A stretch of 64,000 nucleotides of DNA from an uncultured Chloroflexia bacterium. Its GTDB lineage: Bacteria > Chloroflexota > Limnocylindria > Limnocylindrales > CSP1-4. The position numbers were made by a program, and so were the translations under genes. The stretch lies in assembly GCA_963712745.1 (NCBI GenBank), contig CAVQJC010000020.1, forward strand, positions 448,001 through 512,000, given 5' to 3'. Positions 3,113 to 40,173 of this stretch are shown in pieces. Position 1 is the first letter of the stretch; every line of letters starts with the position of its first letter. The notes beneath the pieces are model-generated. The model did no database searches, was not told where the DNA came from, and saw nothing but the letters and a program-made list of their open reading frames with translations.

Positions 3113-3260
3113 CGCCACGACCACTCCGGGACACAGACCCGGCCGCTCCGGCGACGGGGCGGCCTTGCGGATTCTGCTGGACGGTCGGTCCTTCGGCCGG
3201 GAGCCCGTCCTCCGGCCGGGGCCGATCTTCCGACCGGATCGTCGAGAGTACGGATGAAAG

Positions 3261-3266
3261 TGTCAA
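3261..3266 (-). promoter_or_regulatory. Outward-facing -35 hexamer TTGACA in the IS110 right end
   Basis: Perfect TTGACA overlapping the transposase stop codon. In the circular junction it lies 17 nt from TATGAA (4689-4684). Confidence 0.7.
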
Positions 3267-4471
3267 GCCCCGGGCGTGGGTATACCCTCTGGACGGACGC
3301 GGTCGACCGCCTGGCGAAGGGTGGGGTGATGGGGATCGTCCCCACCGCGCAGCCTTGTCCGGCCCAGGTCGTGACTCGAACCAAGCGCTCCCCGTTGCGG
3401 CGACCGCGTCCCGGACACCTCCCGGCCGGCCAGCCGCTCGAGCGCGCGCCGCTTGGTACGCGCCAGGTCCGGTCGGGCATCCCGGTAGTCCTGGTCCTTG
3501 GTGAGCAGGTGCCAGGCGATGATCGCGAGCTTGCGGGCGACCGCGATGATGGCCACGCCGCCACCGCGGCGTGCCTTGATCCGGGCATGGAAGCCCGCGA
3601 GCGGTCCGGGCGAGCGGATGGCCGCATGGGCGGCCTCGGTCAGCAGACCCCGCGCATGCGCTTGGCCGGCCCGGCTGATGTGGCCACCCCATGCGGGTCG
3701 ATCCCCCGACTGGTGCACGCGGGGATCGAGCCCGAGGTAGCTCACCAGCTTGGCCGGTCGGCCGAACCGGGAGACGTCGCCGATGACCGCGAGCAGGCTT
3801 GCGGCGGTGACGAGCCCGATGCCCGGGATGGTCAGCAGCCGGTGCACCCGGGGGTCGTCGACCACCATGGCCGCGATGGCCCCGTCCGCGGCCCCGATCT
3901 CCTCACCCAGGAGCGCCTCGAACCGGAGCGCCGAGTCCAGGCCCAGTCGCTCCTCGGGTGGCAGCTCGAGCCCGCCCAGCCAGCGTCGCCCGGCCACCCC
4001 GAAGGGGTCGGTGGCGGGGCACCGCAGCAGGCGGCGCGACACGATCGCCGTCACCCGGTTGCGGGTCGCGGTCCGGTCGCGCACGAGGCCCGCCCGGTGG
4101 GCCACCAGCCGGCGCAGGGAGCGGGTGGTCGCGTCTGGCACCCACACCTCGGGCAGGTAGTCGGCGGCGAGCAGCTCCGCCAGGGTCGCGGCGTCGATGT
4201 CATCGGTCTTGCGCTTGGCCTCCGCGATGGCCCGGGTGCGGAGCGGGTTGGACACCACCACCCTGCCGGCATGCCGGCCCAGCAGCTCCGCGAGCGCCCA
4301 GGTGTTCGTGGACGCCTCCAGGGCGACCACGTCGTGAGGACCGAGCGTCGCGGCGAAGTCCCGGAACGGGTCGCCCATGGCGACCCTGGGCAGCCTCCGT
4401 GCCGACCCCTTCTGCTCCACCACTGCGACGTGGGCGAAGTCGCGTCCCACATCGAGTCCGACGTATCGCAT
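3263..4471 (-). CDS. IS110-family (DEDD RuvC-like) transposase/recombinase
   Basis: MRYVGLDV (D), VALEAS (E), KTDDIDA (DD), LLTIPGIG, and YLGLDPRVHQSG (Tnp-domain serine); GGAAGGAGG RBS before ATG at 4471. Confidence 0.95.
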   Translation of the reverse strand: MRYVGLDVGRDFAHVAVVEQKGSARRLPRVAMGDPFRDFAATLGPHDVVALEASTNTWALAELLGRHAGRVVVSNPLRTRAIAEAKRKTDDIDAATLAELLAADYLPEVWVPDATTRSLRRLVAHRAGLVRDRTATRNRVTAIVSRRLLRCPATDPFGVAGRRWLGGLELPPEERLGLDSALRFEALLGEEIGAADGAIAAMVVDDPRVHRLLTIPGIGLVTAASLLAVIGDVSRFGRPAKLVSYLGLDPRVHQSGDRPAWGGHISRAGQAHARGLLTEAAHAAIRSPGPLAGFHARIKARRGGGVAIIAVARKLAIIAWHLLTKDQDYRDARPDLARTKRRALERLAGREVSGTRSPQRGALGSSHDLGRTRLRGGDDPHHPTLRQAVDRVRPEGIPTPGA

Positions 4472-4504
4472 CGAGGGCCTCCTTCCCCGATCGGACGATG
4501 GACA

Positions 4505-4677
4505 CCTGGAAGGGCGACACGACACCTACGGATCCGTGCTCAAGGCACAACCGGTCAAGTCGCAGGGGCGGCCAGATAGACTCTCGGACTCTCACGTCCA
4601 CTACGCTCACGGCCCGCCCTCTGGTGTCCCACGAGCCCCTGTCCGGTGGCATCAGCCTACCGATACAGGTGGCCCTA
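4505..4677 (-). ncRNA. Putative IS110 bridge RNA (target-binding loop 4570-4614, donor-binding loop 4520-4562); ends approximate
   Basis: Two stem/internal-loop/hairpin modules whose loop strands match target flank and donor end sequences, plus an enclosing helix CAGGGGC/GCCCCTG (4641-4635 with 4569-4563). Confidence 0.8.
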
Positions 4678-4777
4678 GGCACGTTCATACCCGATAGACT
4701 CGAAAGCGACGCGTTCCCCAGCGCCCGGACCGAGTCACGAGAGGGTCACGAGACCGACGCCACGAGGTAGAGCCGCC

Positions 4778-6353
4778 ATGACCGACCAGCCGCGCACCAA
4801 GATCACCTACGCCACGCTGCGCGCGGACAACGCGGAGCTGCACGCCGCCTTCGAGGAGGCACTGGTGGCGGCTCGCGCCCGCCTCGGCGGCGGCCATCCC
4901 AATGTCATCGGCGGAAAGGAACGCAGCGGTGCGGGCGAGTCCGAGCTGCGCTCCCCCATCGACTCCGACATCCTCGTCGGACGCTTCGCCAACGCCACAC
5001 GGCAGGACGTGGGCGATGCCATCGCCGCTGCCCGGGCCGCCCAGCCAGCCTGGAACGCTCTTGGCTGGGAGAAGCGAGTCGACGATCATGACCGCCGTGG
5101 GCGACCTCATCAGCGAGCGGCTCATGGAGTACGGCGCGCTGATGGCCATCGAGGTGGGCAAGAACCGCCTGGAGGCATTGGGTGAGGTCGAGGAGAGCGC
5201 CGACCTCATCCGTTACTACGCCCGCATCGCGGTCGAGAACGAGTTCTACGTCAAGCCCATGGACAACCTGGGCGACCCCGCCACACATACCCGCTCGGTA
5301 CTGCGTCCGCACGGTGTGTTCGGCGTCATCGCACCCTTCAACTTCCCCATGGCCCTGGCCGCCGGTCCGGTCGGCGCCGCACTGGTGGCCGGCAATACCT
5401 GTGTCTTCAAGCCGGCCCGCGCGGGTGCCATGAGCGGCGTGCTGCTGATGGAGACTCTGCGCGACGCAGGTGTGCCCGACGGCGTGTGCAACCTGGTCAT
5501 GGGTCCGGGCGAGACCGTGGGCGACGAGCTCACGAGGAGCGCAGACATCGACGGCATCGTCTTCACCGGCTCGTACGAAGTGGGCATGGGCCTGCAGCGC
5601 GGTTTCACGCAGGCATATCCGCGCCCCTGCATCGTCGAGATGGGTGGCAAGAACCCGGCCATCGTGATGAAGAGCGCCGATCTGGAGAAGGCTGCCGAGG
5701 GCATCATGCGCTCGGCCTTCGGCTTCGGCGGCCAGAAGTGCTCCGCCAACAGCCGGGTCTACGTCGAGCGACCGGTGCATGACGAGCTGGTCCAGCGGCT
5801 GGTCGAGATCACCGAGCGGCTGACCGTGGGTGATCCGCTGCTGCGAGAGAACTTCATGGGCCCGGTCACCGACCAGCGTGCGCTGGACCGTTTCAGGCAG
5901 GCGGTGGCTGAAGCCCGCCGAGACGGCACGGTCTTCACCGGCGGCGAGGTCCTCACCCAAGGCGACCTGGCACGCGGCTTCTACGTCGAACCTACCGTCG
6001 TGGGCAACCTGCCGGCCGACCACCGGCTCTTCCGCGACGAGCTCTTCGTGCCCTTCACCGCGGTCCTGCCGGTCGAAACGCTCGACGAGGCGCTCGGTCT
6101 CTCGAACGCGGTCGTCTACGGCCTTACGGCCGGCATCTACAGCGAGGTCGACGACGAGGTCGAGCGGTTCCTCGACGGCATCCACACCGGCGTGCTCTAT
6201 GTCAACCGCCGGGCCGGTGCCACCACCGGTGCCTGGCCTGGCGTGCAGCCGTTCGGCGGCTGGAAGGGCTCGGGCTCGACGGGCAAGGCCGCCCTGGGCC
6301 CGTACTACGTGGCCCAGTTCCTGCGCGAGCAGTCGCACACCATCGTCGACTGA
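4778..6353 (+). CDS. Aldehyde dehydrogenase, 1-pyrroline-5-carboxylate dehydrogenase-like; frameshift near 5080
   Basis: PFNFP, FTGS, EMGGKN, GQKCSA, ELFVP, QPFGGWKGSG. The N-terminus (4778 ORF) and the rest (4902 ORF) are in different frames. Confidence 0.8.
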
Positions 6354-6408
6354 CGGCGAAGCGGACAGGCCGCCCGCGGCTATCGGACGGACACCGCGGA
6401 GGCGGGCG

Positions 6409-39234: not shown

Positions 39235-40173
39235 GTGCCTGCCTACATCTACCCCGGACAGGGCTCACAGTCGGTCGGCATGGGCAGGGCGCTGGCCGCG
39301 GTGTCCCCAGAGGCTGCGGCCGTGTGGCAGGCGGCCGACGACGCCCTGGGAGAGCCCATCTCCAGGCTGGCCTGGGAGGGCCCGGCCGAGCAGCTCGACC
39401 TGACCGTCAATGCGCAGCCGGCGCTGCTGGCCGCATCGATCGCCGCCCAACGGGCGCTCGAAGCCAGCCTGATGGGTGGTCGCTCACCGTTGGGGCCGCC
39501 TGACTACTTGGCCGGGCATTCCATGGGTCAGTACAGCGCGATGGTGGCGGCCGGCGTGCTCGAACTCTCCGATGCCGTGCGCCTCGTCCGCGAGCGCGGC
39601 CGCCTGATGCAGGCGTCCTCCGGGGATGGCGCCATGGCGGCCATCATCGGCCTGCCCGACGAGCGCATCGATGAGCTCATAGCCGTGGGCGCACCACTGG
39701 GCATCATCACCGTGGCCAACAGGAATTCGCCGGGACAGATCGTCATCAGCGGCCAGCGCGTGGCGGTCGAGGCGGCGGCGGCGGGCGCCAAGGGCCTGGG
39801 CGCCCGGCGCGGCATGGTCCTGCCGGTGAGCGTGGCCGCCCACTCCTCGCTCATGGCCGAGGCCGCCGAGGGCATGCGCCGGGCCCTCGCCGACATCACG
39901 TTCCACGCGCCCGCGGCGCCGCTCCTGGCCAACGCCGACGCCGTCGAACTCGACGACGGCGAGGCCTGCCGCGACGAGCTCATCGACCACCTCACCCGCG
40001 GCGTGGACTGGGTCACCGCCGTGGAGACCATGGCCAGCGCCGGCACCGACACCTTCGTGGAAGTCGGACCTGGCAAGGTCCTGACCGGGCTGGTCCGCCG
40101 TATCGCGCCCGAGGCGACGACCGTCGCCATCGACGACATCACCACCGAGAGCGGCCTCGAGTTGCCCGCCTAA
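39235..40173 (+). CDS. fabD: Malonyl-CoA:ACP transacylase
   Basis: PGQGSQ, AQPAL, GHSMG, N.NSPGQIVISG, LPVSVAAHS, EVGPGKVL. Confidence 0.94.
   Translation: MPAYIYPGQGSQSVGMGRALAAVSPEAAAVWQAADDALGEPISRLAWEGPAEQLDLTVNAQPALLAASIAAQRALEASLMGGRSPLGPPDYLAGHSMGQYSAMVAAGVLELSDAVRLVRERGRLMQASSGDGAMAAIIGLPDERIDELIAVGAPLGIITVANRNSPGQIVISGQRVAVEAAAAGAKGLGARRGMVLPVSVAAHSSLMAEAAEGMRRALADITFHAPAAPLLANADAVELDDGEACRDELIDHLTRGVDWVTAVETMASAGTDTFVEVGPGKVLTGLVRRIAPEATTVAIDDITTESGLELPA

Follow-up and report, generated by a model that had tools for sequence, protein, structure and literature searches.

A predicted bridge RNA in the left end of a TA-core insertion sequence of the IS110 family from an uncultured Chloroflexia bacterium

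The window analysed here is a stretch of 64,000 nucleotides from an uncultured Chloroflexia bacterium (assembly GCA_963712745.1, contig CAVQJC010000020.1, positions 448,001 to 512,000 of the forward strand). On its minus strand lies an insertion sequence of the IS110 family, with the element proper at 3251–4694 (1444 bp, or about 1.45 kb with the TA cores that flank it). Its non-coding parts are 223 nt upstream of the ATG at 4471 and only 12 nt between the stop codon and the right end. A first-pass annotation of this DNA had read the left end, the size of which it gave approximately correctly as some 220 nt, as encoding a bispecific guide resembling a bridge RNA; the exact limits are set by the cores at 4696–4695 and 3250–3249. 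The bridge RNAs that IS110 elements are described as encoding have one loop for the target and one for the donor (passages of PMC11208160 and PMC11208158). The features of the locus are as follows.

3249–4696, minus strand: IS110-family element in full, with the TA cores of its two junctions (from empty sites, the copy in genome G021 and the ends of homologues)
4695–4696, minus strand: left copy of the TA core (TA at both junctions, once in the empty site)
3249–3250, minus strand: right copy of the TA core (same grounds)
4697–4701, minus strand: left target half-site GAGTC, flanking the element; identical to the loop-1 3′ strand at 4583–4579
3244–3248, minus strand: right target half-site CTCTC, flanking the element; complementary to the loop-1 5′ strand at 4608–4604 at 4/5 positions
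3263–4471, minus strand: recombinase gene, 402 residues, intact (Pfam domains, IS621 alignment)
3261–3266, minus strand: TTGACA, −35-like hexamer overlapping the recombinase stop codon; putative promoter role
4684–4689, minus strand: TATGAA, −10-like hexamer, also part of the subterminal inverted repeat ATGAAnGTG
4633–4675, minus strand: 5′ stem-loop of the predicted RNA, a long hairpin in the minimum-energy fold
4624–4628, minus strand: GACAC, 5′ half of the predicted closing helix, pairing with 4505–4501 (RNAalifold); invariant in the close family
4501–4505, minus strand: GUGUC, 3′ half of the predicted closing helix (RNAalifold)
4565–4619, minus strand: module 1, predicted target-binding loop (fold, RNAalifold, covariation with the flanks)
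4520–4562, minus strand: module 2, predicted donor-binding loop (fold, conservation, match to the ends)

The product of the recombinase gene matches DEDD_Tnp_IS110 (PF01548, 5e-19) and Transposase_20 (PF02371, 5.3e-24), both above the Pfam cut-offs. The IS621 transposase from the Protein Data Bank aligns with it at 8e-16 through the motifs around E52, D90/D93 and S255; the alignment is partial, covering residues 2–141 and 195–326, and it leaves the N-terminal D7 unaligned. All five residues (D7, E52, D90, D93 and S255) are invariant in ten family members. Past the end of the IS621 alignment, the protein continues into a C-terminal tail of about 70 residues (approximately 330–402; window 3263–3480), conserved across the family with invariant columns up to V392, and its stop codon lies inside the right-end TTGACA.

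On the plus strand, the window reads GAGAG-TA-[element]-TA-GACTC. In a search of 40 related genomes, many had the two flanks of the window adjoining, with no element between. The empty site reconstructed in the first-pass annotation therefore exists in nature: all eight same-genus empty-site loci inspected (L009–L016; eight of the ten loci fetched) carry GAGTA[G/C]ACTCG uninterrupted, within a spacer that is otherwise poorly conserved. The TA core, proposed at the same time, is likewise borne out, being present at both junctions, once in the empty site and at all 46 unique left junctions across the element's family. A second copy, at another site in genome G021, is 95–96% identical over exactly the span of the element, 3249–4696; in gene orientation its left flank is GAGTC-TA and its right flank TA-TGCTG, and it has decayed through an 81-nt deletion and frameshifts. 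Homologues have the same element ends. The subterminal repeats ATGAACGTG and CACTTTCAT, of the ATGAAnGTG type, match at 8/9 positions and leave terminal extensions of 6 nt on the left and 3 nt on the right, core excluded.

The RNA predicted from the left end would be about 175 nt long and would be read from the minus strand, as the recombinase gene is, between approximately 4677 and 4500. It would start with the 5′ stem-loop; when 39 homologues are folded singly, most of them pair a variable 5′ arm with the conserved 3′ arm CCGGAC..GGGGC, and the pairing predicted for a few is weak. Two modules follow, over which the GACAC/GUGUC helix is predicted by RNAalifold to close. The core of module 1, at 4614–4570, reads GGCC / GTGAGCGTAGT / GGAC-GTGAGA-GTCC / GAGAGTCTATCT / GGCC, and its outer stem is longer than this unit, 4619–4611 being paired with 4573–4565. 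The 5′ guide strand occupies 4610–4600 (with GAGCG-TA-G at 4608–4601), the inner hairpin 4599–4586 and the 3′ guide strand 4585–4574 (with GAGTC-TA at 4583–4577, followed at 4576–4575 by TC, the first two bases of the left end). Module 2 reads CGAC / TTGACCGGTT / GTGC-CTTGA-GCAC / GGATCCGTAGGT / GTCG; its stem is formed by 4562–4559 and 4523–4520, its 5′ strand lies at 4558–4549, its inner hairpin at 4548–4536 and its 3′ strand at 4535–4524. Both modules are recovered in the minimum-energy fold of 4471–4705 and in the RNAalifold consensus of 40 sequences, and every letter and coordinate given for them in the first-pass annotation (4614–4570 and 4562–4520, minus strand) is right.

With the stems as described, 99.9% of 962 cells pair, compared with 27–43% when the partners are slid. 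Compensatory changes are present at two of the 25 pairs (15 cells), a level reached in none of 500 shuffles; one is a change from A-U to G-C in three sequences and the other an exchange between C-G and U-A in 12 of 39 sequences (module 2 inner stem). The stem covariation proposed earlier as a check is thus present in part, with three more compensatory pairs in the closing helix of a Rhodococcus element (GAGGA/UCCUC), while 20 of the 25 pairs never vary. An RNA read from the opposite strand was considered and rejected, because the junction hexamers face into the left end with the same orientation as the gene and because two G:U stem cells (L033, L035) would be A:C on that strand. Rfam 15 gave no match in the window region at E up to 10, and left a genuine IS621 bridge RNA unmatched as well; the null is uninformative because this release is without a model even for the IS621 bridge RNA.

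Loop 1 covaries with both flanks of the element. In the window, GAGTCTA of its 3′ strand (4583–4577) is identical to the left flank plus core (4701–4695), and GAGCGTAG of its 5′ strand (4608–4601) matches the plus-strand sequence GAGAGTAG at 7/8 positions. Scans for homologues gave 22 loci from species genomes and 51 from metagenomes, and the module-1 pattern is found in 56 of 74 sources, the window included, whose recombinases are 66–87% identical to that of the window. On the left side, 46 unique combinations of flank and guide were compared. At the five positions preceding the core, flank and loop-1 3′ strand agree in 40, 46, 46, 44 and 46 of the 46, and at the next two positions outward in only 12 and 2, so that the left guide is 5 nt plus TA. 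At the position adjacent to the core, flank and guide are C/C in 30 combinations, G/G in 12 and A/A in four, with zero discordance. This guide base has changed at least eight times on a tree of 47 recombinases, and for C and for G alike, four changes are forced by well-supported branches alone.

No part of the RNA varies more than the 5′ strand of loop 1. This strand was compared with the right flank in 36 unique insertions having both flanks and representing 19 distinct guides; right ends were found by their motif, and insertions on truncated contigs were dropped. Cognate 5′ guides match the core plus six right-flank bases at 5.6/8, compared with 4.2/8 for 1,200 non-cognate pairs, and when flanks were permuted 10,000 times at group level, between guide groups, no permutation gave as high a match. 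From +1 to +5, the cognate rates are 0.76, 0.85, 0.65, 0.62 and 0.47, and the non-cognate rates 0.46, 0.51, 0.32, 0.28 and 0.33; matching is strongest from +1 to +4 and gone by +6. The right-flank guide is about 4–5 nt plus TA and tolerates mismatches. Covariation of loop 1 with the flanks, put forward earlier as the check to be made among homologues, is therefore found on both sides. The roughly symmetric 7-nt guides proposed with it describe the left side well, where 5 nt plus TA are read strictly, and fit the shorter, more tolerant right side less well.

The guide of the window appears to have been used at other sites as well, as in G021 (GAGTC-TA / TGCTG), and an estuary metagenome DNA contig (run X1, record 3) shows a further right flank. 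This contig carries the element with one difference and the left flank of the window, with other sequence past the right core at 3248; its right half-site starts with CGCCC in gene orientation, agreeing with the guide at 4/5 positions. The contig represents either a third insertion site or a chimera. Two metagenome loci (L065 and L066) have the same guide and the same right flank and differ in their left flanks, one of which (GAGAC) is mismatched to the guide; this difference may reflect rearrangement between copies.

Loop 2 matches the ends of the element itself. Its ATCCGTA (4533–4527) is identical at 7/7 positions to the right end plus core (3255–3249), which means that the 3′ strand, ATCCG-TA, consists of the last five bases of the element and the core. 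Its 5′ strand has CCGGT where the left end has CCGAT, a 4/5 match whose one discrepancy allows a G:T wobble; pairing of CCGGU with the A of the core and left-end bases 1–4 would give 5 bp, wobble included. These identities and those of loop 1, all noted in the first-pass annotation, agree on re-reading. In dinucleotide shuffles of the 223-nt left end, the 7-mers for flank plus core and for right end plus core occur together in 2 of 20,000, and that for the right end plus core alone in 242 of 20,000. The 7/7 match, the parallel with loop 1 and the analogy with IS621 point to loop 2 as the probable donor guide.

Two conserved hexamers at the ends suggest how the RNA could be made. TTGACA is present in 27 of 29 distinct end pairs (TTGACG in the other two) and TATGAA in 28 of 29; the arrangement TTGACA-17-TATGAA arises only when the element ends are joined, at a circle junction. 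A promoter and terminator scan of the integrated copy, which demands the final T of the −10 box that TATGAA does not have, found none. Three contigs, from RNA libraries of three studies, map to the gene and leader (3887–4124, 4081–4434 and 4347–4508) with zero differences; such libraries can hold DNA, and the contigs are a weak hint that the recombinase gene is expressed. Neither a circle junction nor an empty site was seen among the contigs of four runs.

Two plasmid elements outside the close family carry a related RNA. The two-module covariance model scores 83 bits each on a Rhodococcus pyridinivorans plasmid (L093) and a Sinorhizobium medicae plasmid (L112), upstream of recombinases that are 53% and 48% identical, respectively, to that of the window. 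These elements share with ours the two-module RNA, the right end ATCCG-TA and the loop-2 3′ strand; they differ in the target guide, GUUAG-UA, and in the start of the left end. The left flank of the Rhodococcus element, GTTGG-TA, agrees with its 3′ loop strand at 6/7 positions, and the loop-2 pairing with its changed left end stays at 4/7. Covariance model R1 gave no match on the distant IS110 loci L039, L040, L076–L080, L082, L084 and L086–L091, nor on two other IS110 loci of the genome of the window; a match at window 39569–39671 was dismissed as chance-level (E = 0.6).

Taken together, we consider it very probable, from sequence comparison, that window 3249–4696 is an intact IS110-family insertion sequence whose 223-nt left end encodes an RNA guide, that is, a bridge RNA; the bispecific reading given to it at first sight is supported. 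What the sequences show directly is the anatomy, the empty site, the covariation of the two loop-1 strands with the flanks and the agreement of loop 2 with the ends; the transcription, RNA–protein binding and chemistry we infer by analogy. As in IS621, the element would excise as a circle, and the joining of its ends would set TTGACA 17 nt from TATGAA. The circle junction would then transcribe the RNA and the recombinase, and the RNA would fold into the 5′ hairpin and two internal-loop modules closed by GACAC/GUGUC. Module 1 would read the target, and module 2 would likewise read the circle junction, AUCCG-UA matching the right end and CCGGU the left end, after which the DEDD/Ser recombinase would exchange strands at the shared TA. 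In IS110 recombination, the left target is described as joining the left end (in passages of PMC13626964).

Several observations weigh against this interpretation. The folding energy of the single left end is ordinary (z = −0.91; 34 of 200 shuffles fold as well), and structural covariation is thin because so few of the stem pairs vary. Across 39 sequences, hardly any variation is seen in the strands of loop 2 or in the element ends. The role of donor guide thus rests on the match and not on covariation: that loop 2 should track the ends, the other check proposed at the outset, holds as a match, with zero variation to compare. Its pairing with the left end is short and includes a wobble, and of the four loop strands only the 5′ strand of loop 2 is without TA. 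The right half-site of the window has one mismatch to the guide and that of the G021 copy two, and the right flank of the Rhodococcus element does not fit its 5′ loop strand. As to the promoter, TATGAA is without the usual final T of a −10 box, and the two hexamers double as stop codon and subterminal repeat, which could explain their conservation. No RNA-library contig falls on the RNA body (4509–4677), in a kind of data that cannot show absence, starts or strand, and the genome of the window has no second copy in its 20-contig, 4.2-Mb assembly (84.6% complete).

Some of these points would suit an RNA of the seekRNA kind, in which module 1 is the sole guide, module 2 serves as a scaffold for protein binding, and the recombinase finds the ends by their subterminal inverted repeats, without RNA pairing. 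The ATGAAnGTG repeats are indeed there, loop 2 and the ends never vary together, since neither varies, the weak left-end pairing stays at 4/7 in Rhodococcus with its altered left end, and the RNAalifold consensus has much of loop 2 paired internally. We nevertheless think this improbable, given that the loop-2 3′ strand equals the right end plus core at all seven positions, in the same place that the left flank plus core takes in loop 1, that this 7-mer is so seldom found in shuffled left ends (242 of 20,000), and that the homologous loop of IS621 is a proven donor guide in which one arm is discontinuous too (as described in passages of PMC11208160 and PMC11208158). That the left end is an ordinary messenger RNA leader controlling recombinase expression, with the protein picking the site and the loop/flank matches a by-product, seems to us scarcely credible. 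The structure does lie directly upstream of the ribosome-binding site, with an unremarkable folding energy and an RNA body lacking RNA-library contigs; but nothing would make a leader vary together with DNA beyond the element, and here the core-adjacent loop base equals the flank in 46/46 over at least eight switches while the other strand tracks the other flank.

The bridge RNA interpretation would also be compatible with the copy in the window being an immobile resident relic, the RNA being real as a feature of the family. In favour of this are the single genomic copy, the absence of any further site matching GAGTCTACNCTC from the 4.2-Mb assembly, the missing circle junction and empty site among the contigs of four runs, and the decay of the sister copy in G021. 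The open reading frame of the window's copy and its intact catalytic residues, ends and loops speak against it, and we regard a relic as rather unlikely, though a prospect to be taken seriously.

In a maximum-likelihood tree of 24 recombinases, the family falls outside the clade of IS5075, ISKpn2 and IS5708 with support 100/100; an approximately unbiased (AU) test rejects neither a place beside the IS5075 clade (p = 0.22) nor one beside IS621 (p = 0.117). The sole anchor in this tree for the IS1111 type is IS5075, which we take to be of that type from the title of a cited paper. A low-GC IS110 family on metagenome contigs (L076, L078, L080 and L082) has a protein 38–41% identical to that of the window and long runs of conserved non-coding sequence flanking its gene, some 165 nt before it and some 215 nt after it; in its upstream loop, which has two strands, the 3′ strand UUUGUAGAU equals the left flank, with the right end and core only roughly placed.

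Next to the left end of the element lies an aldehyde-dehydrogenase-like gene (4778–6355, plus strand). The insertion site GAGTA[G/C]ACTCG (window 3241–3250 plus 4695–4703) is about 75 nt upstream of the dehydrogenase start, and the empty site contains TAGACT, a possible −10 box of this host gene; the C variant of the site, present in two genomes, would suit the G-type guides of the family. The gene matches the open frame of a relative in three pieces and two frames (residues 1–102 of the relative in frame 1, 103–433 in frame 2 and 435–526 in frame 1), implying two frame shifts, near 5084 and 6078; these reflect either a decaying gene or assembly errors. Elsewhere in the same genome (G000) are at least five other IS110-family recombinase loci, unrelated at the DNA level to the element of the window (L094–L100), namely:

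C4:201360–201830, IS110-family locus
C20:141332–141802, IS110-family locus
C20:26894–27365, IS110-family locus
C8:95500–95955, IS110-family locus
C1:109267–109704, IS110-family locus

As a kind, the bridge RNA has been known since 2024 and is predicted at tens of thousands of loci. According to the text of Durrant 2024 (PMC11208160), bridge RNAs are predicted in 85.7% of ISfinder IS110 elements, which leaves the novelty implied in the first-pass annotation unsupported, and an October 2026 preprint describes 86 covariance models and 32,190 bridge RNAs, many unlike IS621 in shape (10.64898/2026.10.21.760802, in part). With the mechanism established, one more bridge RNA adds little. The family does provide a clean natural experiment, in which 19 right-guide variants and three left-guide states each come with matching insertion sites, and shows that reprogramming occurs naturally in a GC-rich lineage distant from E. 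coli. A TA-core recombinase with short guides might interest tool builders, although with 7+7 nt recognised it is less specific than IS621.

For comparison with IS621, four genuine copies from E. coli W served as a control and were analysed in the same way as the family of the window. Passages of PMC11208160 and PMC11208158 describe for IS621 much that is seen here: an RNA in the left end, upstream of a DEDD/Ser recombinase, of about 177 nt (about 175 nt predicted in the window), with a 5′ hairpin, then a variable target loop and then a conserved donor loop. They also describe the 2-nt core as part of each loop strand, although the loop-2 5′ strand of the window is without TA, and handshake guides; here, the bases that immediately follow the core in the 3′ strands of both loops match the partner DNA in a similar way. 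The control copies likewise show a right-end −35 and a left-end −10 that are brought together only in the circle. One of them (L107) is flanked by sub-threshold matches to the Rfam family naRNA4, derived from repetitive extragenic palindromic (REP) sequences, at 739–797 and 2118–2183. IS621 inserts into REP sequences, and the naRNA4 flanks fit this.

The differences from IS621 begin with the core, a palindromic TA in the element of the window and CT in IS621. In the control, the 5′ strand of IS621 loop 1, ATCGGGCCT, equals the gene-sense left flank plus core, ATCAGGC-CT, with the known G for A at position 4, and the 5′ strand of loop 2, ACAGTATC, equals the right end plus the first core base, ACAGTAT-C. 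In the window's family, the 3′ strands, not the 5′ strands, equal the gene-sense left flank and the right end, so the guide order is reversed. The IS621 rule, by which the 5′ side of a loop pairs with the bottom strand and the 3′ side with the top strand, describes the IS621 copies and does not describe this family. The opposite order, overlooked in the first-pass annotation, bears on whether the element is an IS621-like subtype, not on its being a bridge RNA. The strict guide also differs, being the 3′ one (5+2 nt) here and the 5′ one (7+2) in IS621. Unlike IS621, the RNA of the window has a helix closing over both loops, and the recombinase is longer, 402 residues with the conserved C-terminal tail versus 326. 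A pipeline that assumed the IS621 order would swap the left and right guides of this family.

The reversed order is that of another branch. For IS1111-type seekRNAs (ISEc11, ISKpn4 and IS5075), passages of PMC11187229 give the complement of the top strand first and that of the bottom strand second; the order in the window is the same, and the same again in one IS5075 copy that we inspected by eye. The seekRNA of ISEc21, of the IS110 type (Siddiquee 2024, PMC11187229, in part), resembles that of the window in lying in the non-coding region upstream of the gene and in having short matches to both target strands that overlap at the insertion point, but its top-strand match is 3′ of the bottom-strand match, whereas in the window it is 5′. 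IS1111 subterminal repeats are described in the same source as near-perfect and 11–13 bp long, with extensions of 7 and 3 or "occasionally 6 and 3"; those of the window are IS1111-like in their 6/3 extensions but shorter, with 8/9 bp matched. IS1111-type RNAs are placed there downstream of the gene, and the upstream position in the window is the IS110 pattern. An IS1111 relative, ISMtsp17, is given in that text as an exception having IS1111-like features and an upstream non-coding region; we liken it to our element by this description only. In the passages and sections of the literature consulted, we found no description of an upstream RNA with the IS1111 guide order, and the figures or supplements of PMC11208160, PMC11187229 and the 2026 preprint may show this family or such an order.

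The clade formed by the Chloroflexota elements, the Rhodococcus and Sinorhizobium plasmid relatives and perhaps the low-GC family could be said to combine IS1111-like traits, in its guide order and 6/3-nt subterminal repeats, with IS110-like ones, in its upstream RNA and simple internal donor loop. We tentatively suggest, as a possibility somewhat short of likely, that this mixture marks an intermediate in a move of the RNA gene from one end to the other without a turning of the recombination site. With a palindromic TA core, only the guide strands would then determine which way round the element inserts. A 2026 review tabulates guide order as a family trait (PMC13604230, in part), and both guide order and RNA position are treated as marks of IS110 and IS1111 in passages of that review and of PMC11187229. 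In the family described here, the two are not tied to each other, and their decoupling bears on the origin of the two branches and on the annotation of orthologues.

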